A stretch of 12,448 nucleotides of DNA, from IMG/VR virus record IMGVR_UViG_3300045747_000063, positions 1 to 12,448 of that record, one strand, 5' to 3'. A program made the translations under genes and the position numbers. Below, piece by piece: positions 24 to 12,448 of the stretch (positions are counted from its first letter, which is position 1; every line of letters begins with the position of its first letter). Source of the stretch: a virus. Lineage: Duplodnaviria; Heunggongvirae; Uroviricota; Caudoviricetes. The notes below the pieces were generated by a model. The model worked only from the letters and a program-made list of their open reading frames with translations. It was not told the origin of the DNA and did no database searches.

Positions 24-968
24 ATGAGCGCAAGACAAGATTTAGCAGACTTCATTCTACGCCAACTCGGTTCACCTGTAATCGTGATTGAAGTTGACTC
101 ACAGCAACTCGAAGACAACATAGACTTGGCTGTTCAATACTACCACGAGTACCACTTCGACGGTATTGAGCGTGACTACCTGTCGTACATCATCGTTGGA
201 ACAAAAATTACCGTAGCCGATGCTACTGGCTTCACCAAGGGTGGGGCTGTTATGTCTTTGGATGGAGCAACCGTTGCACTGATTTCAAATGTAACTGGAA
301 ACGTAATCACAATCAACAAGCAGGTTGGTTTGGTTAAATTCTCAGTTGGTCAAACAATCTCAACTGGAAATTCTGGTGGCGCACAAACAACTATCTCAGG
401 TATTGTTCTTGGCGACCCAGACAATGGTTGGATTCCTGTAGCCGATGAAATCGTTGGCGTGAAAAAGATTCTGAACATCACAAGCATCCTCGGTTCATCC
501 GATTACATGTTCAATGTGAACTACCAAATCATGATGTCTGAAATTCAAAACTTGACCAGCGCAGGAACTGCATACTTCTACGGCGTGCAACAATTCTTGG
601 GTCACTTGGACTTCATCATGAAGAAGGAAAAAGATTTCCGCTTCAACCGCCGTATGAATCGTTTGTACCTAGACATTGCTTGGACACAAGACGTTAAGGT
701 TGGCGATGTTGTTATCGCAGAAGTGTACCGCGCACTAGATGAAGTGAACTTCCCAAAAATCCTTGATGATATCTGGTTGAAGCGTTATGCAACAGCCTTG
801 GTTAAAAAGCAATGGGGTAGCAACACACGTAAGTATCAAGGAATGCAACTACCAGGTGGGGTGACATTCAACGGTCAAACCATATATGACGAAGCAGTTG
901 AGGAAGTGAAATACCTAGAAGGTGAAGCTATTTACAGCACTTCGCCATTGGAATTCATGACGGGTTAA
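24..968 (+). CDS. gp13: T4-like neck protein gp13 (head completion/adaptor)
   Basis: Characteristic gp13 motifs: ILRQLGSPVI.IEVD..QLED.IDLA.QYYHE.HFDG, FRFNRRMNRLYLDI.W, D.WLKRYATALVKKQWG.N..KY.GMQLPGGVTFNG..IYDEA. SD GAGGG upstream. First of the 13-14-15-16-17 series. Confidence 0.95.
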   Translation: MSARQDLADFILRQLGSPVIVIEVDSQQLEDNIDLAVQYYHEYHFDGIERDYLSYIIVGTKITVADATGFTKGGAVMSLDGATVALISNVTGNVITINKQVGLVKFSVGQTISTGNSGGAQTTISGIVLGDPDNGWIPVADEIVGVKKILNITSILGSSDYMFNVNYQIMMSEIQNLTSAGTAYFYGVQQFLGHLDFIMKKEKDFRFNRRMNRLYLDIAWTQDVKVGDVVIAEVYRALDEVNFPKILDDIWLKRYATALVKKQWGSNTRKYQGMQLPGGVTFNGQTIYDEAVEEVKYLEGEAIYSTSPLEFMTG

Positions 969-1073: not shown

Positions 1074-1829
1074 ATGACAGCAATCGTAAATCCATATTTC
1101 CACGCAAATAAAGGCAGTGAACAAACTCTGCTGAATTCGCTCGTCCGCGAATCTATCCAAGTGCACGGAAGACAGTATTACTACCTACCACGTGATGCAC
1201 AAGTTAAGGATGTAATCTTAGGTGAAGACGTTGTATCGGCATTTACACTTGCCGTTCCTCTTGAAATGTATATGGTGGATGCTCAAGGATTCTCTGGTCA
1301 AAAAGAAATGTTTTCGAAGTTTGGTCTACAAATTCAGAACTCATATAAGCTTGTTGTTGCGGTTGACCGCTGGGAAAAAGAAGTAAAGTCCCAGTTCGAC
1401 ACCCAAGCATTCAACGGTGAGGCTGGTTTCACCATCCCAAATTATCTGCGCCCACACGAAGGCGACTTGATTTATGACTCGCTAACAAAATTCTTGATGG
1501 TAATCAAGTTCGTTGACCACGATATGGAGTTCTATTCATTGGGAAAGAACTACGTGTACTACTTGTCATGCGAATCTTTCTTGTACCAAAACGAAGCGAT
1601 TGCAACAGCAGTTCCAGAAATCGACACGTTTGCTTCATTGAGTATGGACAATTTGAACTTCCAGTTGATGACAGAAACTGGTGTGGCATTGCGTCAAGAA
1701 GATGGTAACTTCATCTTGCAAGAAGAAAGTCCAATCCCCGCAGAACCAACACGCAGTGTGAACATGGACTACACAATCCCTGCTCAGAGCATAAATACAA
1801 CTGTTGCATCTAACCCATTCAACATGTAA
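1074..1829 (+). CDS. gp14: T4-like neck protein gp14
   Basis: Motifs NPYF...GSEQ.L...LV.E.IQ.HG..YYYLPR, GED..S.F, EMY....GF.G....FSKFG, P.EGDLIY, FY.LGKNYVY.L.CE.F.Y..E.I.T...EID. Synteny between gp13 and gp15. Confidence 0.95.
   Translation: MTAIVNPYFHANKGSEQTLLNSLVRESIQVHGRQYYYLPRDAQVKDVILGEDVVSAFTLAVPLEMYMVDAQGFSGQKEMFSKFGLQIQNSYKLVVAVDRWEKEVKSQFDTQAFNGEAGFTIPNYLRPHEGDLIYDSLTKFLMVIKFVDHDMEFYSLGKNYVYYLSCESFLYQNEAIATAVPEIDTFASLSMDNLNFQLMTETGVALRQEDGNFILQEESPIPAEPTRSVNMDYTIPAQSINTTVASNPFNM
1790..1797 (+). promoter_or_regulatory. Putative T4-type late promoter (CATAAATA)
   Basis: 7/8 match to the gp55 late promoter TATAAATA, about 40 nt upstream of the gp15 start. Confidence 0.55.
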
Positions 1830-1838
1830 CGGTGAACT

Positions 1839-2597
1839 ATGTCATCCCCAATTTTTAAAGCCAACCATTTCTACCACCAGACTACGAAGAGTTTCATCGT
1901 GTCTTTTGGTGAACTATTCAGCAACATCTCAATCGAAAAATACCAAGCAGATGGTACTAAGGCACAGACATATGAAGTGCCGATTGATTTCTCGCCGAAG
2001 AACAAATGGTTGATAATGATTGGTGAACGTCCAGACTACACAACCAACCAAGTCCAGATGACGTTGCCTCGCTTGGCATTTGAAATCACCAGCATGACAC
2101 CAAACATGGCTCGAAAGATTGGGTTCAATGGAACTTACTCAATCGCCAATGTAAACGGTGGTGGACAAACAAAAATTTACAATCCGGTTCCATATGATTT
2201 GACTGTGAATCTTTACGCTATCACAAAAGATAACGAAGACATGCTTCAAATTATTGAGCAAATTATTCCGTTCTTCCAACCAACGTTGGTGTTGAACCTG
2301 AACCTGCTACCAGAGTACAACGTATACAAAGACATTCCAATCTCATTGATGAATGTCACAACTGAAGACAGCTACAACGGAAGCACAGAAGACCAACGTT
2401 TCATCAACACCACATTCACGTTCAATGTGCCTTTGTTCTACTTCGGCCCAATCTCCGACAAGACAAAAGAAATCAAAGACGCAAAGGTTGCTGTTACAAC
2501 CAACCAAGGAAAATTGGAGAACTACGAAGCAGTGGTTAACCCAATAACAGCAAGCAAACAAGCAGTGCATACAATAGTGGAGACATGGAAGCAATAA
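1839..2597 (+). CDS. gp15: T4-like tail sheath stabilizer / tail terminator gp15
   Basis: Motifs FYH......IVSFGELFSNI, VPI.F.PK.KW, TLPRLAFE, PVPYDL...L......EDMLQIIEQIIPFFQP. SD GGTGA. Synteny. Confidence 0.95.
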   Translation: MSSPIFKANHFYHQTTKSFIVSFGELFSNISIEKYQADGTKAQTYEVPIDFSPKNKWLIMIGERPDYTTNQVQMTLPRLAFEITSMTPNMARKIGFNGTYSIANVNGGGQTKIYNPVPYDLTVNLYAITKDNEDMLQIIEQIIPFFQPTLVLNLNLLPEYNVYKDIPISLMNVTTEDSYNGSTEDQRFINTTFTFNVPLFYFGPISDKTKEIKDAKVAVTTNQGKLENYEAVVNPITASKQAVHTIVETWKQ

Positions 2598-2598
2598 T

Positions 2599-3018
2599 AT
2601 GAACGATACAATGGCAGAAGTATTTGAAGTAACACCAGTTGAAGTGATAGACACAGCAGGAGTTTCATTAACGATTGCACCAGAAGGTGCAGAGGATGAA
2701 GACCACGCATACGCACGTGACCGTCACTATGAACTTGCAGAGAAAGGCGCAGAGGCTCTACTAATCGCAATGAAGATTGTGAAAGAGACTGAGAACCCAC
2801 AAGCCATCAAAGAATTGAGCGGTCTGATTAAGACTCTCTCGGAAATCAACAAAAACTTGCTGCATCTGCACAAGGATAAAGCTGATATTCAAGCCGTAAA
2901 GGGAACTGGTAAATCCCAACCAAGCACAAATGTCGAACAACAAAACATCATCTTTGCTGGCAGCAGCAAGGACTTGAACAAGTTGATTCAAACTCAGTTG
3001 AATGAACTGAATAAATAA
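2599..3018 (+). CDS. gp16: Terminase small subunit gp16
   Basis: D..YAR...YEL..KG.EAL..A......E.P.A...L..LIK.L......L..LHK helical core and C-terminal NIIFAGSSKDL (cf. N.IF.GST.EL in T4-like gp16). 139 aa, directly after gp15. Confidence 0.88.
   Translation: MNDTMAEVFEVTPVEVIDTAGVSLTIAPEGAEDEDHAYARDRHYELAEKGAEALLIAMKIVKETENPQAIKELSGLIKTLSEINKNLLHLHKDKADIQAVKGTGKSQPSTNVEQQNIIFAGSSKDLNKLIQTQLNELNK
3010..3017 (+). promoter_or_regulatory. Putative late promoter (AATAAATA) overlapping the gp16 stop codon
   Basis: 7/8 match to TATAAATA, 25 nt upstream of ATG 3043, with an AAAGG SD in between. Confidence 0.6.
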
Positions 3019-3042
3019 TACACTTATAACGAAAGGCGAAAC

Positions 3043-5022
3043 ATGGCAACCCTAAAACAATTGATGGCACTGACTGAACGTAACCGTGGTGAGCCTGACG
3101 GCGATGAACGCGAAGAACGCAAACTCGATAAAAAGTTCAACAAGCCAGTTGGACAAACAAAGTTCATGAAGGACTATGATGACAAGCGCGATGGCGTTGG
3201 TAAGTCTAAGGACACACCTTCTGTTAAGGAAGAAGTACAAGCAATCGAAGAAAAAACAATTCTTTCATTGAAGTCTTTTTTGGCTGGCCCAGATGTATCA
3301 AATGAACAACACAATCAAAACTACATCGAAGGTCTTGGTGACTACAATCTAATCACAGACCCAAGTCATACGCATATCCACTCGACCAATGAATCTATCG
3401 AACCAAACGCAGACAATAGTAAGCGCGTCGATGTGCGTGGTAAATCTAATAGCTCCGGTGTATCGGGTCTTGAAGTTCCAAAGCATATGTTGGAAGGAAA
3501 GAATGGATTGATGGAATTCCACAAAAAAGCACAAGCTGAGTTTCCAAATTCAGATGGTTCAACCCCACGTCATGAACCAATGGGCGACAAGGAATTGCAA
3601 AGAAGCCACAAGGCTCTTGCAGAAGAACACGCAAAACTTCCAGAACACGAGCAAATAAAGAAAGAAAAAGAAGCCAGAGGAAGACTAGGCAAGCTTGGTG
3701 TAACCAGCGTTCTTTCACAAAGTGATAAAACCGACACTATGCTCGGTATGAAACACCCGAAAACAGGGAAGCCAATCGTTAGTGCTCCATCAGTTAAGAA
3801 TGTAGCTGGTCATGCCGTTTATCCAGTTGGAGACCACGAACATCACATTATTAACACATGCCGAGGACAAACCGAAGGGTGTGGTGGTAAGGTCGATGCT
3901 TCTGGAAAAATAAGCACACGAACTGGCACATGCTTCGCACCAAATGCAGAAGCACAATACAAAGATGCCGCTGCAAAACGTGCAAAATTGACATATTCAT
4001 CACACCACCCACACTTGCACAAAGATGTATTCCATGCAACTGTTGGTGAGTTGCGTGATGAAGCAGCCAAGGGTGATAAAGCCAAGACAGACAAAGAAGG
4101 CGAAAAAGGTGGACACGTTGTAGTTAGACCTGACACCACAGCAGAAAACGATAATGATAAAACTGCTCACGCGGTGGCATTGTTGAATAAACAACGTTCA
4201 GAAAAAAGCAAAACCGATGGAAAATCTCGTCCAGAAATTCTAATCAACCGTTACTCCAAAACTGGTCAGGAAGGTTCGACTTACTCGAACACTGGGCCAA
4301 AAGTTAAGAATGGTGGAACAATTGGTGAGAACGTGCGCAGAGATTCAAAGCGTCACAACCAAACTGTTAAGGCAAGCGATTCTTCTGGAAAAGACTTTGT
4401 TAAGGCAAGCGGTGAAAAAGAAGAACCACGTCACCAATACATGGTTAATGACTTGAAGCGTAATGGCGATGAAGAGAAAAAAGTAGATGCACACCTACAC
4501 ACTGTTCGTCATTGGAGTGCCCCAGTTGCCAATGAACATCTAACTGGTCATGAAAAAACCAAGAGCGAAGCTCACTATGATGCAAATGGAAAAGAAACAA
4601 CAGAAGACAAAGCGCACACTGGTTTCGCATCAAGAAATGGTAGAACATATCGCTACAGCAATCACCATGTGATTCCAAAGCGTTATCCAACCGATGGGCA
4701 TCCAGCAGATGACCGCTTGTTCGACTCTCACCACATGAGCGAAAAATACAAATCGAAAGAAGGTGGTTTGTATTCCAGCAATGGTAAGCGTCACGGTGGC
4801 GTAATCATGACTTCACCAACCGACTCGACTTCAAACCACAAGCGTCAACACGCTGAGTTTACACACCCTGTATCTAAACATGTTGACTCTATTGTTAAAA
4901 CTGGACGTTATGATGTTGACCACCCAGATGAACAAGAAGCAGCACGTGGAAAAGAATACAAGGAACCAATTGAAGGTAAAGCAGTGAAGAGTATCACTGG
5001 ACTCAAAAAGGCAAAACTGTAA
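3043..5022 (+). CDS. 659-aa His/Lys-rich protein with a three-Cys (Gp88-like) domain; probable internal head protein
   Basis: Long ORF with phage-typical codons and an SD. Leader MATLKQLMALTE. Its only three Cys form TC-x6-C-x16-CFA, followed by VVRPDTTAE, NRYSK, TYS and DGHPADDRLFD, in the order I recall for Gp88-like phage proteins. The family call is from memory. Confidence 0.9.
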   Translation: MATLKQLMALTERNRGEPDGDEREERKLDKKFNKPVGQTKFMKDYDDKRDGVGKSKDTPSVKEEVQAIEEKTILSLKSFLAGPDVSNEQHNQNYIEGLGDYNLITDPSHTHIHSTNESIEPNADNSKRVDVRGKSNSSGVSGLEVPKHMLEGKNGLMEFHKKAQAEFPNSDGSTPRHEPMGDKELQRSHKALAEEHAKLPEHEQIKKEKEARGRLGKLGVTSVLSQSDKTDTMLGMKHPKTGKPIVSAPSVKNVAGHAVYPVGDHEHHIINTCRGQTEGCGGKVDASGKISTRTGTCFAPNAEAQYKDAAAKRAKLTYSSHHPHLHKDVFHATVGELRDEAAKGDKAKTDKEGEKGGHVVVRPDTTAENDNDKTAHAVALLNKQRSEKSKTDGKSRPEILINRYSKTGQEGSTYSNTGPKVKNGGTIGENVRRDSKRHNQTVKASDSSGKDFVKASGEKEEPRHQYMVNDLKRNGDEEKKVDAHLHTVRHWSAPVANEHLTGHEKTKSEAHYDANGKETTEDKAHTGFASRNGRTYRYSNHHVIPKRYPTDGHPADDRLFDSHHMSEKYKSKEGGLYSSNGKRHGGVIMTSPTDSTSNHKRQHAEFTHPVSKHVDSIVKTGRYDVDHPDEQEAARGKEYKEPIEGKAVKSITGLKKAKL

Positions 5023-5025
5023 ACA

Positions 5026-6678
5026 ATGCTTCAAATCCCTGAGAGTATTGAGGCTCACTTAGAAACACTGTCATTTAGAGGAAATTTCAACCTTAGAGAA
5101 GGTTCTACTAAGGTTGGAATGACCGCAGAAATGTTGGCAGAACGTTTCAAGTGTTCTCAAGACCCAATCTATTTCATTAAGAACTACATCCACGTTGTCC
5201 ACCCAGACCGTGGTATTTGTTTGATGAATCTTTATCCTTATCAGGAAAAGATGATTCAAGCATATCACCATAACAAACGTGTAACGTTCATGACTCCGCG
5301 ACAGTACGGTAAAACCACCGTCTCTGCGGCGTATTTCATTTGGTACATTCTATTCAACGATGATAAGACTGTTGCGATTCTTGGTAACAAGCAAGCAACT
5401 GCCGATGAAATCATGGATAGAGTTAGATTGGCGTATGAGTGTTTGCCGAAGTGGTTGCAACAAGGTGTTACATCTTGGAATAAACGCTCAATCACTCTCG
5501 TAAACGGCTCTAAGTGTTTCGGTGCTGCTACATCATCAAGTGGTATTCGTGGTAAGACAATTCAATTGCTGTACATTGATGAATATGCGTTCGTTGAAAA
5601 CAACATCGCAGAAGCATTCTTCACATCTGTGTATCCAACGATTACCGCTGGTAAAGACACAAAGGTTTTCATCACATCTACCCCAAACGGATATAATCAC
5701 TTCCATAAAATCTGGAATGAGGCTAACAAGAAGGGTGACGATTGGAATGGTTTCGTCCCATTGCGCGTGTATTGGACAGAAATGCCAAACCGAACACAGG
5801 CTTGGTATAACGAACAGAAGGCAGTTCTAGGTGAACTAAAAACAGCGCAGGAATTGGATGCAGAATTCTTGGGTTCGAGTATGACGTTGTTGACAGGTGC
5901 TACGATTGCACGTCTGACATACGATACACCATTATCTCAACCTGGTGGTCACTACCACGGATTGAAAATTTACACAGAAGTCCAAAAGAACCACGTATAT
6001 TCCATTGAGGTGGATACATCACGTGGTAGACACTTGGACTCGTCCGCGTTCACGGTGTTTGATATTTCGACATATCCTCACACGATTGCTGCAACATATA
6101 AGAACAACGAAATTGCACCATTGCTATACGCGTCAGTAGTTGAGAAATTAGCTCGTGTGTACAACATGGCATTCATGCTCATTGAAATTAACGATATCGG
6201 TGGACAAATTGCCGACACTATTTACTCAGACTTGGAGTATGAGGGTGAAATGTTCTGGACGAAATCCGGTGATATTCTTGGTAAGACTGGAGTTGACCCA
6301 TATCCGGGTATACGCACGACTAAGAAGACTAAGCGTATAGGTTGTGCCAACTTGAAGGACATGATTGAGAACAACCAACTAATCATCAATGACTTTGACA
6401 TGATTAGCGAATTGAGTACGTTCGTTCAAAGTACAACTGGCTCATATGAGGCAGATGAAGGATTCCACGACGACACTGTTACCACATTATGGCTACATGC
6501 TTGGCTATGTGCACAGCCTTGGTTTGGCGACTTGACCGATACAAACTTCCGCCTAAAGCTGCACCAGAACCACGTTAAAGAAATGGAAGAATCTTTGGCT
6601 GCTCCTTCATTCCTTGATGGAACTGAAGACTATGTTGACAACGGATATGACGACCAACGTCATGCGTGGTTAATATAA
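5026..6678 (+). CDS. gp17: Terminase large subunit gp17
   Basis: Adenine-binding LYPYQ, Walker A PRQYGKTT, Walker B LLYIDEYAF, coupling motif ITSTPNG, nuclease VDTSRG..LD.SAF and EG.HDD. Uninterrupted 550 aa. Confidence 0.98.
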   Translation: MLQIPESIEAHLETLSFRGNFNLREGSTKVGMTAEMLAERFKCSQDPIYFIKNYIHVVHPDRGICLMNLYPYQEKMIQAYHHNKRVTFMTPRQYGKTTVSAAYFIWYILFNDDKTVAILGNKQATADEIMDRVRLAYECLPKWLQQGVTSWNKRSITLVNGSKCFGAATSSSGIRGKTIQLLYIDEYAFVENNIAEAFFTSVYPTITAGKDTKVFITSTPNGYNHFHKIWNEANKKGDDWNGFVPLRVYWTEMPNRTQAWYNEQKAVLGELKTAQELDAEFLGSSMTLLTGATIARLTYDTPLSQPGGHYHGLKIYTEVQKNHVYSIEVDTSRGRHLDSSAFTVFDISTYPHTIAATYKNNEIAPLLYASVVEKLARVYNMAFMLIEINDIGGQIADTIYSDLEYEGEMFWTKSGDILGKTGVDPYPGIRTTKKTKRIGCANLKDMIENNQLIINDFDMISELSTFVQSTTGSYEADEGFHDDTVTTLWLHAWLCAQPWFGDLTDTNFRLKLHQNHVKEMEESLAAPSFLDGTEDYVDNGYDDQRHAWLI

Positions 6679-6681
6679 ATA
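6674..6681 (+). promoter_or_regulatory. T4-type late promoter TATAAATA overlapping the gp17 stop codon
   Basis: Perfect consensus, followed by SD GGAG (6691-6694) and ATG 6701. Confidence 0.8.
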
Positions 6682-6700
6682 TTTCATATTGGAGAATTAC

Positions 6701-6877
6701 ATGACAACAGAAACAATTGGCGTTAAGCGCACTCTTCGCCAAATCAAAGAAGCATTGGCTAAACAAAAAGGCCGTCACACGATTACCAAGCGTGACCCAA
6801 CAACCGGATTCGAAGAAAAGATGGTTCACTTTGGAACTGTTGATAATGTTCCAGCCGGATGGAAGATTTCAGACTAA
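6701..6877 (+). CDS. 58-aa basic hypothetical protein, possible small internal head protein
   Basis: GGAG SD 6 nt before ATG 6701 (better start than the track's 6689). Late promoter upstream. Stop overlaps the next start (TAATG). Contains KRTLRQIKE. Confidence 0.8.
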   Translation: MTTETIGVKRTLRQIKEALAKQKGRHTITKRDPTTGFEEKMVHFGTVDNVPAGWKISD

Positions 6878-7407
6878 TGAAGAACTGGCGCGAATACCTC
6901 ATTGAATATCACAAGACTCCTGCTGGACTTGTTCCATCGCATGAGACATTGGATTCGCCAAATGAAAAGCATTCGTATGGTGAGGTAGATGGACACAAAG
7001 TTTATCATACTGGCAAGCATACCTACGTCACAGACAAAGACGGTAACACGGTTGGTCACATTGGACACAAGAAACAAAAAGGTGCACCAGCAGGCCGTCT
7101 AGCAGTATCGAATATCACCAAAAAAGAAGGCACATCAATCAGTATGGGAAAAGTATTACACCATCTGATACACAAAGGACATTCGCTAGAGTCGGACAGC
7201 ATGAATACGCCGTCAGCGCATGGGATGTTGATGAAACTAGCTAAACATCCAGACATAACTACTCATATAGAAGATGGACAGCGAAATGTTGTACCACATC
7301 ACGGCGATATAACATCCACCGAAAATCAAAATAAATATTCCGCTCATTATGAAGAACCACACTTTTGGGATGTTCAAAAGCATATCTTGGTGTTTAATAA
7401 AAAATGA
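6877..7407 (+). CDS. 176-aa His-rich protein with CTS-like leader MKNWREYLIE; degenerate GNAT-like fold
   Basis: TAATG coupling puts the start at 6877 rather than 6859. The leader resembles T4 CTS MKTYQEFIAE. The LAVSNI...LHHLIHKGHSLESDSMNTPSAHGML..L..HP.I pattern resembles phage GNAT-like proteins (L.SD..QT..g..lW..L). Confidence 0.85.
   Translation: MKNWREYLIEYHKTPAGLVPSHETLDSPNEKHSYGEVDGHKVYHTGKHTYVTDKDGNTVGHIGHKKQKGAPAGRLAVSNITKKEGTSISMGKVLHHLIHKGHSLESDSMNTPSAHGMLMKLAKHPDITTHIEDGQRNVVPHHGDITSTENQNKYSAHYEEPHFWDVQKHILVFNKK
7330..7337 (+). promoter_or_regulatory. Possible late promoter (AATAAATA)
   Basis: 7/8 match, about 67 nt upstream of ATG 7404, but inside a coding sequence, so it may be chance. 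Confidence 0.35.
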
Positions 7408-8576
7408 TTACAGTAAAAACTCTCCTTTCCGAAGCCAAGAAGCCTGTTGCAGGACACGTCATTCACCTTTTGACTAATCCACAAGTGACAGGTAAAGAAG
7501 TAGACAACCTTGAAAATTCTATTTCTCAACCGGGAAAGAAACATATATATCACACCTCCGATATCAAGCCTGAGACAAAGGCGTTCTATCAAGGTGCGAT
7601 GAGCAACCACAAACATTTCTTCGCCAAAGATGGCGAGGTTAAGACCGTGTTTGACGCTGTAGATAAAGTGAAAGGCGATAAGAAACCAATCACAGTTATG
7701 ACACACCCAAATCAGGTCGATGCATTAACAGCATCGTTTAAGACAACTCATCCAGACGAGAACATCAAGGTGAAACCGCTCTTACATGACAAGGAAGCTC
7801 CAATCAAGGACAAGAAACAATTGGCTCTCATCCACCCGTCCGTTCCACGTGAACAAGCGAAGAAGATGATTGGTGAAGCACTTGAGGTTGGCGACTTCGT
7901 TACAAATGGTTTGGTTGAAGGCGAAATCATCAACATTCACCCACGATATGCAGTCATCGTTGAAAACGGCAATGAACACAGAGTGTGGATTGAGCAATTG
8001 GACTTTATCGAAGGTGAAGCAAACCAGAATCGTATCTACAAAGAATCATACAAGTATCGCGGCTACAAGTCTAAGAATTTGACACGCGAACTCGCAGAAG
8101 AATTCAGAGAACTATCGAAGTCAACAGAAGACGTGTATGCACTCCTAAATTGCTTGAAGTCGTGTGACTTTATCATGGGGTCAACATCAGATAGCATCCA
8201 AGAAGACTTCAAAAACACCCGCATTCAGCTTGAACGCGCCAAGCGTTACACGAGTAAGTTTGGCATAAATATATCTGAGAAACTTGAATTTGTTGAAGAA
8301 AATTGCCTGCAACACGCAATTATCGAAGGTGTTGCATTTACCACCACCGACAAAAACATGATTGCAAAGTTGATTGCATCCGTGGCAGATGAATCGCCAA
8401 CTGGAATAGACCCAACCGCAATAATCAATAAAGCAGTTCAGAAATTAAGACTCGCTCAACTAACTCCACCAGGTTGGAAGATAGTTGGTCGAATGTTAGC
8501 AGTTGCAACCAAAGCTGGCATCCGTTGGAACAAGGATACGTTCAGCAAATCACAATTAGAAATGATGGGACTATAA
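7404..8576 (+). CDS. 390-aa divergent homologue of the T4-like phage cytidylyltransferase-like protein (HIGH-family fold plus SH3-like domain), catalytic motif degenerate
   Basis: ATGA overlap with the previous gene. Collinear resemblance to the cyanomyovirus cytidylyltransferase as recalled: NPQVTGKE vs NPPTTGHE, IKPETK vs LDPD.K, KTVFDAV vs RTIFDVL, EVGDFV...GEII...Y......RVWIEQL vs .VG..V...G.II...N......KSWI.DV. Leader MITVKTLLSE. Confidence 0.85.
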   Translation: MITVKTLLSEAKKPVAGHVIHLLTNPQVTGKEVDNLENSISQPGKKHIYHTSDIKPETKAFYQGAMSNHKHFFAKDGEVKTVFDAVDKVKGDKKPITVMTHPNQVDALTASFKTTHPDENIKVKPLLHDKEAPIKDKKQLALIHPSVPREQAKKMIGEALEVGDFVTNGLVEGEIINIHPRYAVIVENGNEHRVWIEQLDFIEGEANQNRIYKESYKYRGYKSKNLTRELAEEFRELSKSTEDVYALLNCLKSCDFIMGSTSDSIQEDFKNTRIQLERAKRYTSKFGINISEKLEFVEENCLQHAIIEGVAFTTTDKNMIAKLIASVADESPTGIDPTAIINKAVQKLRLAQLTPPGWKIVGRMLAVATKAGIRWNKDTFSKSQLEMMGL

Positions 8577-9770
8577 ATGGCTACCAAAATCCAAAGCTTC
8601 AAAGACCACCTAACCGTTGAAGGCTCAGACGACCGCGCCGAACGTGCATTGACATTTGGTCACACCCAATTGGCAACAACATCGAAATCACCAGCCAAGA
8701 ACAAAGCTATGGTAATCCCAAGAGCTGGTAACGGCCCAACAACATATCACGCAGACCGTGCGGCAGCACAGACTCACATTGATACACATGGTTTGGGTGG
8801 AAGTCACCAAATCGTCAATGCGTCTACAGAATACGCAATGGAGTTGATGGCTAAGTTGATGAGCGAAGGCGACGACCAAACTGACTTCGCATTGATGCTT
8901 GAATCAATTCTGTTGGAAAACTACGACAGTCCAGTGTTGATGCAAGATAGCCTCGATGATGTCAAGAAGAGTGCTGCTAAATTGAGCGCACAAGCACGCA
9001 AGGCAACTGATGCACTCGACGGTGGAACATCTGACCAACACAAGAAGGCTGCAAATCTTCACGCTATTGCTGCTCACGAACACCGAAAAGCCCTGAATAT
9101 GATTCACAACAAGGTTGACAATTTGACCTATCAAATCCGCAATGCTGCGCACCCATCTTCTATCAATAATCTACACGATGGTTTGCTAGGAGAACTTCAA
9201 TCCAAGCGCACCGACTTGGAAAATGATAGTTTTGACCACAGCAAAGAAATTGCCAGTCACCACAAGGAAATTGGATATCACACATCGAACGTAAACGAAG
9301 GAACCGAAATGGCAACTCTAAAATCGCTTTCAGAAGCATTCAGCGGAATCTTGCAAGCAGCTAAAGATAAAGCAAACACACCACCAAAGAAGAAGTATGG
9401 TGAACGTGATGGCGATGAAGATGACAAGAAAACATACTCAGGTGCACTAGGTGATGCATTGGGTATCAAGGCCAAGAAAGAACCATCCAAGGGCGACCTA
9501 ACTCGCGGCGAAATGAAGGGTGTTGGTAAGGTTCGTCGTCACGTGTGCACAGAAGGCGTTGATTTCACCGTGTACCAAGTTGGAACAAAGTTCGTTGCTC
9601 AAATCGTTGAAGGTGAGGAAGTTGTATTTGAATGTGCAGCACCAACAGAAGCTGGCGCAATCGCTCAAACAAATCGCATCATCGAACAAACACTTGAAGC
9701 TTGCGCTGAAACTCAAGTAGCTTCAGTTGAAGCAGCAAAGAGCGTAGCAAAGAAGGTGACATCGAAATGA
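8577..9770 (+). CDS. 397-aa hypothetical protein, probable multi-segment internal head protein with an internal in-frame start at 9309
   Basis: Starts immediately after the previous TAA. Leader MATKIQSFKDHLTVE. His-periodic helical segment. Internal GAAGGA SD plus ATG GCA ACT CTA AAA at 9309. Confidence 0.85.
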   Translation: MATKIQSFKDHLTVEGSDDRAERALTFGHTQLATTSKSPAKNKAMVIPRAGNGPTTYHADRAAAQTHIDTHGLGGSHQIVNASTEYAMELMAKLMSEGDDQTDFALMLESILLENYDSPVLMQDSLDDVKKSAAKLSAQARKATDALDGGTSDQHKKAANLHAIAAHEHRKALNMIHNKVDNLTYQIRNAAHPSSINNLHDGLLGELQSKRTDLENDSFDHSKEIASHHKEIGYHTSNVNEGTEMATLKSLSEAFSGILQAAKDKANTPPKKKYGERDGDEDDKKTYSGALGDALGIKAKKEPSKGDLTRGEMKGVGKVRRHVCTEGVDFTVYQVGTKFVAQIVEGEEVVFECAAPTEAGAIAQTNRIIEQTLEACAETQVASVEAAKSVAKKVTSK

Positions 9771-10336
9771 GTTTACTCCCACAAAAAGGTGAGAAGATTT
9801 CCAGTTATATAAAAGACTTCAATCCAGTTCCAGCAAAAAGCGAAATCAAATCTGCATTGAAAGCTGGTGTAGCTGGTGTCAAGAAGGCTGCAAGCATTTT
9901 CACAAATCCTGTCAAGGCTGCTAACAAGCGTCTTGGTGAGGAATTGGAAACTGCAACAAAGAAAATTCCAAAGGGTGACAGCACTGCACCAAACGAAGGT
10001 TCTTCTCTCGGTAAAGCTGTGCACGCAAAATCATCGTACACGCAAAAAGACCCGCAGCCAACAAAAGTAACTGAGTCTGACGATGCAATCGGAAAACTCT
10101 TGGCAGACAAGCACGACTTGAATGTTACAACAGTCAAAAAATCTTCAACTGGTTCAACACACGTTAGCGTAAACAACGCAGCAGGCGCAGACGATTTGAA
10201 GAAAGCAAACCAAACATTGAAAGATGCTGGATATGCTAAACATGTAGCTGTGCACGCACCACAGAAGATGACTCTTGGTGGAAGATTTGAACGTCCAAAG
10301 GGAGATGCAGCAAATACTTCCAGTGGAAATGACTAA
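9767..10336 (+). CDS. 189-aa Lys-rich hypothetical protein, possible internal head protein
   Basis: ATGA overlap with the previous gene. About 27 Lys (hand count), no hydrophobic stretch, phage-typical codons. Confidence 0.8.
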   Translation: MSLLPQKGEKISSYIKDFNPVPAKSEIKSALKAGVAGVKKAASIFTNPVKAANKRLGEELETATKKIPKGDSTAPNEGSSLGKAVHAKSSYTQKDPQPTKVTESDDAIGKLLADKHDLNVTTVKKSSTGSTHVSVNNAAGADDLKKANQTLKDAGYAKHVAVHAPQKMTLGGRFERPKGDAANTSSGND

Positions 10337-10371: not shown

Positions 10372-11406
10372 GTGTCCCAATACTCATACACAAAAAAGCC
10401 AAACTTCCTTGCTGACGCAAAGCGTCCATTCAAGTTGACAGAAGCATCTTGCATTTTGAGCAACTCAGCCACAACTTGCACACGCGCAGCAGGAAGCTTC
10501 ATCACTGACGGCGTAGTGGTTGGTCAAACAATTACAGGCCCAGGAGTAGTAGCAGGTACAACCGTATCCGCCGTGAACTCTGCGACCTCGATTACCCTAT
10601 CACAAAACACAACATCATCTGCGGCTGGCACTGTTGAACTTTTGTTTGCATCAGCTTCTTTGCCAATTACATACGCTGCACCAGAAGGTTGGATTCAACC
10701 AGGTGTTGGTGGAAATAACGGCGTTGCAATCCAATCTGCTTCATGGTCTGGTAGCGTTCTTACATACAACGCAACCGCACACGGACTTGTAACAGGTCAA
10801 GATGCTTTGATTACTGGTGTTATCGGTGGAACTGTTGCCGATGCATACAACGGTCATAAGGCTGCTGTAACTGTAGTTACTGCTGACCAATTCACTGTTG
10901 CACAAACTGTTAACCCAGGACTTGCAACTGTTGTTGCAACATTGAGCAAGGTTTGGAGCATTTACGAAGTTATTGTCTCAATGGGTGGTTTGGATACTAC
11001 ATATGCAGACTTCTTGACAATCCCAACATTCGCCGCAGCAGTTACATTGGCTGGTACAGGTGTGGGTGGTACATTCCACTACAAGACAGGTGATGTTTTC
11101 ACAGTTATTTTGACTGCATCTGAACCAATCGCAGTAAACGTTGGTGCAGGTCTACCAACATTGCAGTTGAACATCACATCTGGTGCAAAACAAGCCGTAT
11201 ACAACCCAGCGTTGTCCGGTGCAAGCACTATGGCGTTCTCGTATACGCTAGTAGCTGGTGATATCGCAACCGCCACAAACGTAACAACAGGAACAACCGT
11301 AGCAGCAAACGGCGGGGTATTCAACGACATCGCAGGAAACAGCCAAGCTGGTTTCACACCAGGCTCGTTCACCGCCGCTGCAATAACTACTGTTGCATTC
11401 AACTAA
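10372..11406 (+). CDS. 344-aa modular beta-rich virion structural protein (head decoration/adhesin-like, C-terminal Ig-like domain)
   Basis: Strong SD and late promoter. Thr/Ala/Gly/Val-rich. Modules: GQTITGPGV.AGTTV..V.SATSITLS; TAHGLVTG....ITGV.G......NG....VTV..ADQFTV; YKTGD.F.V.L..SEPI.V..G.PTL.L......A.Y....SG..T.AFSYT..AGD....NGG...D.AGN (bacterial adhesin Ig-like repeat). Confidence 0.85.
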   Translation: MSQYSYTKKPNFLADAKRPFKLTEASCILSNSATTCTRAAGSFITDGVVVGQTITGPGVVAGTTVSAVNSATSITLSQNTTSSAAGTVELLFASASLPITYAAPEGWIQPGVGGNNGVAIQSASWSGSVLTYNATAHGLVTGQDALITGVIGGTVADAYNGHKAAVTVVTADQFTVAQTVNPGLATVVATLSKVWSIYEVIVSMGGLDTTYADFLTIPTFAAAVTLAGTGVGGTFHYKTGDVFTVILTASEPIAVNVGAGLPTLQLNITSGAKQAVYNPALSGASTMAFSYTLVAGDIATATNVTTGTTVAANGGVFNDIAGNSQAGFTPGSFTAAAITTVAFN

Positions 11407-11413
11407 TAATATC

Positions 11414-11435
11414 GGGGTGAGTTAAGTCTCACCCC
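11414..11435 (+). other. GC-rich intergenic hairpin GGGGTGAG-TTAAGT-CTCACCCC (terminator-like or mRNA-stabilising)
   Basis: Perfect 8-bp inverted repeat with a 6-nt loop, 7 nt after the stop at 11406. No adjacent U-tract on either strand, so it is not a canonical intrinsic terminator. Confidence 0.65.
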
Positions 11436-11460
11436 ACTCATTTGATAAAGGAGCATCACC

Positions 11461-11892
11461 TTGGCAGACAAGAAAATTTCCGAATTAGTTTCGGCTACCA
11501 CAGTTAACACAACCGACTACTTCCCAATCGTGCAGGGTGGAACTACTCTCAAGCTCGATTTTGCAACGTTGTTGTCGCATCTTCCAGCACCAGCAATTGA
11601 ATTGCCTGCTCAAGAATCACCGGCATCTGGTGCGTTGTCAACTGCAATCAAGACCTCTCTAGTCACCAGTACAACCGGAGCAACCAACTACACATTGGCT
11701 GCTGGTACACATGGTACAAAGAAAGTAATTGCGGCACAAACAATGGGTGGTGCAGCAACTGCTGTTATCACAGTAACAAGTGGAACTGGATTCACAACAT
11801 TGACTTTCAATGCAGCAGGCGACTACGTTTCTCTTGAGAACATCAATGGATTCTGGTTCATCTCTGGAAACACAAGCGTTGTAGCAGCATAA
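11461..11892 (+). CDS. 143-aa virion structural protein (T4-like ADKKISEL family, fibre/decoration-like)
   Basis: AAAGGAG SD plus TTG start. N-terminal KKISEL..AT.....DYFPIVQGG...K motif typical of phage fibre/structural N-termini. YTLAAG..G..K and TLTFNA.GD.V.L......WFI pattern. Confidence 0.8.
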   Translation: MADKKISELVSATTVNTTDYFPIVQGGTTLKLDFATLLSHLPAPAIELPAQESPASGALSTAIKTSLVTSTTGATNYTLAAGTHGTKKVIAAQTMGGAATAVITVTSGTGFTTLTFNAAGDYVSLENINGFWFISGNTSVVAA

Positions 11893-11906
11893 TCTGGTGA
11901 AGAAAA

Positions 11907-12448
11907 TTGGATATTAAATTAACACAGCTTCCAGAAGCAGCATCGAGCGCGTCCGATGACCTGTTTATGGTTGTGCAAAATGGAGTGAACAAGAAAATAT
12001 CTTTGACAACATTGTTGAAGACACTTGACTCGTTTGACAATATCCAAATCAATCCGTCTAGACGACCAATTGACCTTAGAATTAGTTCAAGCAACTCCAC
12101 AAATCTGTTTTACATTGACGGCTCTGCCGACTTCATCGGGGTTGACACTGCGACACCACAAGCGAAATTCCATGTAAATGGAAACATCAAAGTTGGAAGT
12201 ATCGCAGATGATGGAGTCTTTTTGAATTCAGCCGAAGATATCACCTTCACAAATGCTACTGATGCACCAGAAGGTGTTGGTTATTTCAAGCCGCTTAACG
12301 CGGCAAGAGAAATATCAAACTTGTATGTTGATACAGGTCTTAGCATTGGACAATTCGATTTGGGTAACGGAATTTCGGGCCAGTATAAAACATTGACCGC
12401 TGTTACTCTTCCAAGTGGAGCAAAAGCGACTGTGAAGGTTGCGGCTGG
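11907..12448 (+). CDS. Partial structural/fibre protein, paralogue of 11461-11892 (runs off the window; not in the ORF track)
   Basis: GGTGA SD plus TTG at 11907. Open to the window end: MDIKLTQLPEAASSASDDLFMVVQNGVNKKISL...FIGVDTATPQAKFHVNGNIKV...FDLGNGISGQYKTL. IG..T.TP...FHV.GNI is a common phage fibre repeat. Confidence 0.8.
   Translation, partial: MDIKLTQLPEAASSASDDLFMVVQNGVNKKISLTTLLKTLDSFDNIQINPSRRPIDLRISSSNSTNLFYIDGSADFIGVDTATPQAKFHVNGNIKVGSIADDGVFLNSAEDITFTNATDAPEGVGYFKPLNAAREISNLYVDTGLSIGQFDLGNGISGQYKTLTAVTLPSGAKATVKVAA

Follow-up and report, generated by a model that had tools for sequence, protein, structure and literature searches.

The DNA stretch analyzed here (the window) comprises the first 12,448 bases of the 76,448-base IMG/VR record IMGVR_UViG_3300045747_000063, which has an estimated completeness of 43%. 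The gene order in the window is gp13-gp14-gp15-terS-X-terL-g1..g5, with all genes on the + strand; gp13, gp14, gp15, terS and terL were identified by profile searches (Table 1). In comparison with phage T4, the source phage has one extra gene (X, 659 amino acids) between terS and terL, and an extra block between terL and the sheath gene that consists of the g1-g5 cassette followed by three conserved genes without known function. In this work we examined short N-terminal leaders ending in (L/I)-x-E that are carried by X and by genes of the cassette. An initial annotation of the window had proposed that these genes form a new system of late-expressed, capsid-targeted and protease-matured cargo proteins. 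The promoter octamer, the four coupled junctions and the leaders quoted there are all present where it had placed them: the junctions are TAATG between g1 and g2 (6875-6879), ATGA between g2 and g3 (7404-7407), TAA and then ATG between g3 and g4 (8574-8579), and ATGA between g4 and g5 (9767-9770), and a GGAG Shine-Dalgarno sequence (6691-6694) lies 6 nt upstream of the g1 ATG (6701). Five of the six quoted leaders contain an exact (I/L)-x-E as claimed, i.e., those of X, g1, g2 and g3 and the internal one of g4.

The sheath, tube and portal genes are located farther along the same contig, as is a gene for a Peptidase_S77 prohead protease (PF03420, 80.9 bits; contig 18253-18921), which is adjoined by genes for a T4_CASP scaffold (PF25623) and Gp23 (PF07068). 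TerL is at most 44% identical to that of any cultured phage, the nearest being cyanomyoviruses, Pelagibacter phage HTVC008M and a Variovorax phage, and a megablast search of the window DNA against 50,697 deposited phage records gave no match. Judged from its T4-like gene content, this low TerL identity and the lack of a match among deposited phages, the source phage is a deep-branching, uncultured T4-like myovirus. For g1-g5 and X, neither PHROGs nor Pfam gave a match, and single-protein searches for related loci returned only copies 91-93% identical.

Table 1. Genes and promoter-like motifs of the window (positions count from the first base of the window; L1 is the leader rule defined in the text)
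Feature	Position	Strand	Remarks
gp13-like head-tail adaptor	24-968	+	profile search
gp14-like head closure protein	1074-1829	+	profile search
gp15-like sheath stabilizer	1839-2597	+	profile search
terS, gp16-like small terminase	2599..3018	+	phrog_445/735, PF11053
Late-promoter-like ATAAATAATAC	3011-3021	+	32 nt before X start codon; same 10-11-mer before other late genes
X, 659 aa, Lys/His-rich	3043..5022	+	leader MATLKQLMALTE (3043-3078), ends L-T-E12, exact (L/I)-x-E; passes L1
terL, gp17-like large terminase	5026..6678	+	PF03237, PF17289
TATAAATA	6674-6681	+	overlaps terL stop TAA (6676-6678); core ATAAATA 6675-6681; 20 nt before g1 ATG
g1, 58-aa basic protein	6701..6877	+	I-K-E at residues 15-17 (leader region 6701-6751); GGAG 6 nt upstream
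g2, 176 aa, 11% His	6877..7407	+	leader MKNWREYLIE (6877-6906), ends L-I-E10; passes L1
g3, 390 aa	7404..8576	+	leader MITVKTLLSE (7404-7433), ends L-S-E10; passes L1
g4, 397 aa	8577..9770	+	atypical leader MATKIQSFKDHLTVE (8577-8621); internal MATLKSLSE at Met245 (9309-9335), ends L-S-E253, exact (L/I)-x-E
g5, 189 aa, Lys-rich (14% Lys)	9767..10336	+	without leader in source phage

Distribution of the N-terminal leaders

Of the 109 open reading frames (ORFs) of the contig, 29 (27%) have a bare [LI]xE whose Glu is one of residues 6-20, which agrees with the concession in the initial annotation that the site alone is weak. Because the bare motif is common near N-termini, a stricter leader rule was fixed, termed L1, which reads ^M..[LIVFYW]..[LIFYM] followed by [LIM].E ending at residue 9-13. 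This rule is looser than a position-specific scoring matrix (PSSM) built from the g3 family, which failed to unite the leaders of the window, and L1 was therefore adopted in its place. On the contig, 4 of the 109 N-termini match L1, namely those of X, g2, g3 and one pilin-like ORF, and the rule also matches at 8 out of 576 internal Met positions (the true start of g2 and the internal site of g4 left out). Phage T4 was used as the positive control, where L1 finds ipII and ipIII (both MKTYQEFIAE) and gene 24 (MAKINELLRE). There are 14 matches among 409 ATG-ORFs of at least 50 amino acids in T4, and the other 11 correspond to a false-positive frequency of about 3%.

We then applied L1 unchanged to three contigs that had played no part in fixing the rule (L008, L009, and L010), which were reached via g3 homologues 40-54% identical to that of the window. 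The rule matches 17 of the 78 called genes, and the matches are very unevenly distributed: 17 out of 32 variable genes carry such a leader vs. 0 out of 46 conserved structural genes (Fisher's exact P = 9e-9; binomial P = 1e-9 against the T4 rate). The 46 conserved genes include gp14, gp15, terS, terL, the three post-cassette genes, DUF7207, sheath, tube, portal, and protease. All 17 matches are found within the variable stretches terS..terL and terL..h1, h1 being a conserved gene between the cassette and the sheath gene. Typical leaders in these contigs are MTTLKQLRE, MATLKQLSE, MKSFKQFISE, and MWSFKQYLIE, and for about 12 of the 17 matches the protein has no relation to any protein of the window. 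The same observations bear on a simpler explanation, that these are ordinary late accessory genes whose N-termini look alike through AT-rich, weakly structured 5' ends favoring translation (MK.., MT..) together with a chance L-x-E. The 27% of ORFs with a bare motif near the N-terminus, the A/T-rich leader codons (AAA, ACA, ACT, TTA) and the diversity of leaders within the window are in its favor. We regard it as highly improbable, however: the conserved late structural genes work under the same expression constraints and gave no match at all against 17 in the variable genes, the hydrophobic spacing and the position of the Glu are kept while the codons vary, and the leaders are extra residues ahead of domain boundaries.

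The leaders are an exchangeable, lineage-wide peptide module found on unrelated proteins that are encoded next to head and packaging genes. Domain boundaries behind leaders are seen in L009, where the leaders of a saccharopine-dehydrogenase-type enzyme and a DUF6267 protein are 24-27 extra residues ahead of the Pfam domain (Sacchrp_dh begins at residue 25 and DUF6267 at residue 28). The leader of the former (PF03435 + PF16653), which precedes the Rossmann domain, is MKSFKQFRQIKE in L009 (812-2248) and MKQLSEIRRLIE in the orthologue of L004 (158-1615); this enzyme family includes polyamine-pathway enzymes. Taken over all contigs, leaders precede Sacchrp_dh, DUF6267, GP88, and nucleotidyltransferase-like domains. 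The leader codons differ at synonymous positions between paralogues of one genome and the upstream DNA is unrelated, which argues that selection acts on the leader as a peptide and not as a DNA or RNA cassette. Leader conservation among homologues was checked for g2, g3, g4, and X: the leaders are either conserved or swapped for another type, with the cut point in register.

Some minor observations concern the L1 matches and the leader-bearing loci themselves. The only match outside the terminase region of the contig is the 83-amino acid ORF at 72480-72731, which starts with MKKILGFTLIEFMIVLAIVG... and resembles the prepilin N-terminus of a type IV pilin or pseudopilin (G-F-T-L-I-E and then a hydrophobic helix). 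In T4, the hypothetical protein gp61.1 (NC_000866 18966-19130, 54 amino acids) starts with MKTFKEFIKE, close to MKTYQEFIAE, and its gene is located in the early-gene region far from the ip loci. A ferritin-family gene (12385-12825) is also present within the cassette of L009.

Proteins behind the leaders

For g3, 22 homologues were found besides the query's own record. Members down to 39% identity retain M(K/I)x(V/I)KxLLE as their leader consensus, short forms of 247 and 244 amino acids without the N-domain still bear a leader, and one member starts with MKTYQEITE, which is nearly the T4 sequence. The protein consists of the leader, a degenerate nucleotidyltransferase domain, a small KOW/Tudor-like barrel and a strongly conserved helical C-terminal domain. 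Its C-terminal 240 amino acids are strongly conserved and are also found as a stand-alone protein. In the AlphaFold2 (AF2) model (mean predicted local distance difference test score, pLDDT, 82.8) the leader is a helix at residues 4-11, modeled with low confidence, that precedes the folded part. Residues 15-159 of the model align with NadR, PPAT, and NMNAT at Z of 9-10 and a root-mean-square deviation of 3.3-3.8 Å over 133-141 residues (VIA-align), and BFVD matches are cytidyltransferase-like phage proteins with E down to 3e-13. Among the homologues, three contain PF01467 and one PF06574, and the window copy has no Pfam match. In alignment A1, P0009, P0010, P0013, P0014, and P0017 read PPTxGH and SATKMR or SASKMR, and P0015 reads VHAGH and SSTKMR; in the window copy VTGK replaces the TxGH-type motif and the segment with the second motif (ISxTxxR-type) is deleted. 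Since the fold matches and both the TxGH histidine and the ISxTxxR segment are lost, the assignment of g3 as a nucleotidyltransferase fold without its catalytic motifs, i.e., a predicted pseudo-cytidylyltransferase, stands. A Foldseek search of the whole model against PDB gave only noise, with pyruvate kinases on top, and an Atlas search with the C-terminal part gave no usable match.

The g2 protein has the highest His content in the contig. Two close homologues were found in a set of 5.8 billion proteins and a third in L010 via local BLAST. The leaders in this family read MKNWREYLIE, MLTFRAWLVE or, with 13 residues, MSTLNQLRTFLLE, and the mature start Y-(H/E)-x-T is common to all three. In the AF2 model (pLDDT 75), residues 1-25 are disordered except for a low-confidence helix at 4-11. 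The top 50 Foldseek matches in PDB are all GNAT proteins, at weak scores (best E 2e-4, TM 0.33-0.40), and in the Atlas search GNAT clusters rank no higher than 38 and 51. Behind strand 74-82, the loop (KKEGTSISMGK) lacks the G-x-G/A of the acetyl-CoA pyrophosphate-binding loop (Q/R-x-x-G-x-G/A). The model thus resembles GNAT weakly and an acetyltransferase activity of g2 is doubtful. The initial annotation had proposed two apparent pseudo-enzymes, and both assignments hold in part: g3 has a recognizable fold that has lost its motifs, and g2 has a weak likeness to GNAT.

X has 59 homologues with E down to 1e-100. Many are annotated as PF17338 (GP88), and X matches the proteins so annotated at E of 1e-100 to 1e-63 with 33-42% identity over 78-89% of length. 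The commonest N-terminus among the homologues is MLSFKxF(I/L)xE followed by S. A direct hmmscan of X found no GP88 (PF17338) or other match at E <= 0.1, the PHROG search was likewise empty, and pairwise BLASTP of X with the positional GP88 proteins of L008 and L010 was not significant. X can be placed in the GP88 family by transitive homology only.

Homologues of g4 start with MTTLKQLRE, MKTFKELAE or MKSLKELRKSLEE, and the internal LKSL(R/S)E is also conserved among them. A gene within a gene starting at the internal MATLKSLSE of g4 was considered and is not supported, since homologue P0030 lacks a Met at this site. The internal LKSLxE is possibly a second cleavage site. For g1, the KRTLRQIKE quoted in the initial annotation lies within MTTETIGVKRTLRQIKE at the N-terminus; the searches gave a single relative, 91% identical, in L002 and no distant homologues, and the case for g1 as a leader-bearing protein is weak. 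Homologues of g5 in L008 (6866) and L004 (10846) have an N-terminal extension with MSSIKSIKE or MKLNEQIKE. No recognizable fold or family was found for g1, g4, or g5. Most of these proteins are Lys-rich with a pI of 8-9.6, g4 excepted, a basic character that is compatible with life next to DNA. By their N-termini, X, g2, and g3 are good candidates for capsid-targeting leaders and g4 is a probable one. The leader cassette of five genes in the initial annotation is accordingly reduced, with g2, g3, and g4 convincing, g1 weak and g5 without a leader.

Prohead protease, T4 internal proteins, and the probable role of the leaders

The N-terminal leaders of T4, known as the capsid-targeting sequence (CTS), their cleavage by gp21, and internal proteins (IPs) that share only this leader are well established (PMC8442874, PMC3012670, PMC12373910, PMC5694885). 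In the source phage, the gp23 propeptide contains the sites LNE7, LEE12, LDE20, and LNE55, and LNE55 immediately precedes the core region aligned with mature T4 gp23*; the specificity of the protease thus looks T4-like. The protease's own N-terminus carries a similar K-L-I-T-E. Per 100 amino acids, [LI]xE occurs 3.9-4.1 times in the scaffold and the protease (3.9 in the scaffold), with a genome mean of 1.25, and it is below the mean in g2 (0.5), X (0.9), and g5 (0.5). Such a contrast would be expected of a scaffold that is shredded and of cargo that is clipped a single time and survives the protease.

Leaders are also found within the head-core block. Two genes between protease and scaffold (18921-19184 and 19186-19476; L011:6922-7477) share only their first approximately 22 residues, MAITKPITDSLKE... 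(MAITKPITDSLKEA.Q.VLEA). The body of the first one (18921-19184) is 61% identical to an internal module of P0032, a 350-amino acid g4-family protein of a relative, so one and the same cargo module can have its place in either the head-core block or the post-terL cassette. In L018 a gene starting with MTTLKQLKE directly follows the protease gene. When DNA encoding exact MTT(L/F)KQ(L/F)xE starts was searched for in IMG/VR, 18 loci were found, at least 12 of which are true gene starts and 6 of which are from this clade, one of these being located right behind the protease gene. Several others look like chance (a GroES-like gene, complete small phages without protease), and one is on a jumbo-phage contig with a Peptidase_S77 gene of its own. 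Such exact starts also occur on contigs in which no Peptidase_S77 was found, mostly small fragments. This speaks for a rival reading in which the tag is no capsid address and is either an autoregulatory helix or recognized by another partner (an export route, a chaperone or a modifying enzyme). The chance of this is slim in our estimate. In length and pattern the tag is like the T4 CTS, with the T4 protease motif at its end, genes that carry it are grouped with those for head and packaging, even right behind the protease gene, the protease N-terminus has the similar K-L-I-T-E mentioned above, and the 76-kb contig, itself 43% complete, has no radical-SAM (PF04055) match.

We consider it fairly probable from the sequence data that this distant T4-like myovirus has X, g2 and g3 as internal head proteins, and with less certainty g4 as well. 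In this scheme each protein would have a helical leader of 9-15 residues, typically M-(A/T/K)-T-L-K-Q-L-x-E or M-K-x-aromatic-x-x-aromatic-(L/I)-x-E. Like MKTYQEFIAE of T4, this leader would attach to the scaffolding core and so bring the protein into the assembling prohead; the gp21-type serine protease (Peptidase_S77) would then cleave behind the Glu of (L/I)-x-E and so release the leader, and the filled head would retain the mature protein together with the DNA. The assignment as putative T4-type capsid-targeting leaders, which end in a prohead-protease site and mark head-loaded proteins, is well supported by the gene and leader comparisons. Targeting, cleavage and virion retention of the tagged proteins we infer by analogy with T4, and ejection into the host and any anti-defense activity, including the decoy or sponge role suggested in the initial annotation, are speculative. 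The T4-type reading offered in the initial annotation is strengthened by the Peptidase_S77 gene, by the enrichment of leaders near terL in the relatives, and by the conserved or register-keeping leaders of homologues. Its term "new system" is not retained: at the level of sequence the locus shows the features of the T4 CTS and internal-protein scheme and is probably a variant of it.

The likeness to T4 can be stated in several points. In both, a leader of about 10 amino acids is common to otherwise unrelated proteins of the phage or lineage, with the pattern M-K/T-T-aromatic or aliphatic-K/Q-E/Q-aliphatic-x-E ending in the gp21 motif (L/I)-x-E; a Peptidase_S77 protease and a T4-type scaffold are encoded; the proteins are Lys-rich and basic; and the same rule L1 matches T4 ipII and ipIII and X, g2, and g3 of the window. 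T4 Ip1-3 block type IV restriction enzymes, and the T-even ip loci are a fast-changing arsenal (PMC12373910). In contrast to the T4 IPs, the putative cargo of the source phage has no sequence similarity to them, is 176-659 amino acids long with enzyme-type folds vs. approximately 80-190 amino acids, is encoded by genes that flank the terminase genes and not in T-even ip loci, and is in part conserved and syntenic, not hypervariable; several leader variants also coexist in one genome. Closer in size is T4 Alt, a head-packaged ADP-ribosyltransferase, which like gp24 has a short N-terminal propeptide trimmed by gp21 (PMC5694885). These two are a large enzyme and a structural protein with a propeptide of 10-20 residues removed by the prohead protease, the gp24 leader MAKINELLRE fits L1, and Alt is a precedent for enzyme-sized cargo delivered to the host; the cargo of the source phage has no homology to either. 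An enzymatic action on the host is uncertain, because g3 has lost its catalytic motifs and the presence of such motifs in g2 is doubtful. In phiKZ-like and SPN3US jumbo phages, inner-body and ejection proteins are processed by a T4-related prohead protease (PMC5694885). There too, many head-internal proteins are matured at x-x-E by a gp21-related protease, and SPN3US gp53 and gp54, with identical N-termini and diverged bodies, recall the two genes after the protease gene of the source phage. Most of the jumbo-phage propeptides exceed 100 residues, and their motif is (S/A/G)-x-E, whereas those of the source phage have 9-15 residues and end in (L/I)-x-E in the T4 style.

A number of observations weigh against the interpretation of X, g2, g3, and g4 as internal head proteins. 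L1 was derived after the window and two relatives (L004 and L006) had been seen, it has the false-positive frequency of about 3% given above, with T4 lysozyme among the false matches, and some of its matches in L008-L010 fall on orthologues of g2, of g3 or perhaps of X and so are not fully independent. The leaders are heterogeneous within one window, and the g3-family PSSM ranks X second and g2 only 13th among the 109 contig N-termini. In g1 the site stands at residue 17 and the N-terminus fails L1, that of g4 ends in T-V-E15 and not in an exact L/I-x-E, and g5 lacks a leader in the source phage. A tblastn search with the g3 protein against the 50,697 deposited phage records gave no match. Furthermore, g3 holds 8 internal [LI]xE sites (2.1 per 100 amino acids), and the order of g3, the g4 C-terminal domain (syntenic in L004 and L009) and g5 is preserved even where the g3 of the relative has just 41% identity. 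This synteny across deep divergence fits an assembly or structural role at least as well as variable cargo, departs from the hypervariability that anti-defense cargo would be expected to show, and argues that at least part of the g3-g5 block has a conserved, possibly structural role.

The conserved order, the above-average density of internal motifs in g3, its strongly conserved C-terminal 240 amino acids, and the leader-bearing genes within the protease-scaffold block would also be explained if the tagged proteins entered the prohead as core or scaffold accessories similar to T4 gp67 and gp68, and were then degraded or expelled with no delivery to the host. We think this unlikely, as g2, X, and g5 are poor in internal cleavage motifs (0.5-0.9 vs. 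3.9 per 100 amino acids in the scaffold), folded enzyme-type domains (nucleotidyltransferase and GNAT-like here, Sacchrp_dh and DUF6267 in relatives) are not scaffold-like, and the T4 precedents with a short leader, the IPs and Alt, are retained and not degraded (PMC8442874, PMC5694885). Going beyond the internal head proteins proposed above, one may ask whether the clade uses an exchangeable tag of 9-13 residues to load complete proteins, many of them of enzyme type, into the capsid, so that they are delivered ready-made with the DNA. This is a tentative idea and, taken as a whole, rather doubtful; the cargo would then comprise GP88-family, nucleotidyltransferase-like, GNAT-like, saccharopine-dehydrogenase-like, and DUF6267 proteins. 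Proteins that a phage injects are active ahead of phage gene expression and, being mutually non-homologous, are hard to find; if the tag does load delivered cargo it would provide a sequence handle to catalogue injected takeover or counter-defense proteins from metagenomes. If the tag works like the T4 CTS, the head-internal proteome of uncultured T4-like phages would be predictable from this N-terminal signature and the presence of a Peptidase_S77 gene, and new cargo classes would be indicated: terminase-operon GP88, degenerate nucleotidyltransferase-like and GNAT-like proteins and, in relatives, polyamine-type enzymes. Full-text searches on the T4 capsid-targeting sequence and related terms, in part combined with cyanophage and metagenome terms, gave no description of such leaders in environmental T4-like phages. 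The present work probably extends a known T4 mechanism to enzyme-like cargo.

Expression signals and neighboring genes

The initial annotation had also proposed late expression of the cassette from a T4-type octamer. TATAAATA is not enriched in the contig (5 on the + strand vs. approximately 3 expected), and as the late promoter of the source phage it is rejected in that form, since a different, extended motif recurs. The core ATAAATA is strand-biased, with 20 copies on the + strand vs. 4 on the - strand. The motif before clearly late genes is ATAAATA(A/G)TA(C), with a spacing of about 32 nt (X, the gene at 17955, scaffold) or 50 nt (sheath); these sites, of the ATAAATAATAC type, are found at 3011-3021 and at contig positions 13769, 17923, and 19505. 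We propose ATAAATAATAC as a candidate late-promoter consensus of this clade that is longer than the T4 one. Late expression of g1-g5 is plausible at most, since the site at 6675 carries just the ATAAATA core, which recurs before late genes.

Between the cassette and the sheath gene, the genes h1 (MSQYSYTKKP...), h2, h3, and DUF7207 are conserved in all relatives. They span 10372-12448 of the window and extend to approximately 12952 of the contig, they are without leaders, and h2 and h3 have a common MADKKISEL-type start. No PHROG function was assigned to them, and they are likely neck or fiber components. Three relatives have a - strand gene of 501-528 amino acids between terL and g3 (L004:6968-8554, L008:8390-9895, and L010:7826-9409), which is absent from the window; it starts with an N-terminal Cys-x2-Cys of the zinc-ribbon type and may be a mobile element or nuclease gene. 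The terL gene itself is interrupted in some relatives. In L008 (4692-6837) the N-terminus of terL is found on a 142-amino acid ORF and a faint intein match was obtained for the main ORF, and in the P0021 contig a 328-amino acid ORF separates Terminase_6N from Terminase_6C.

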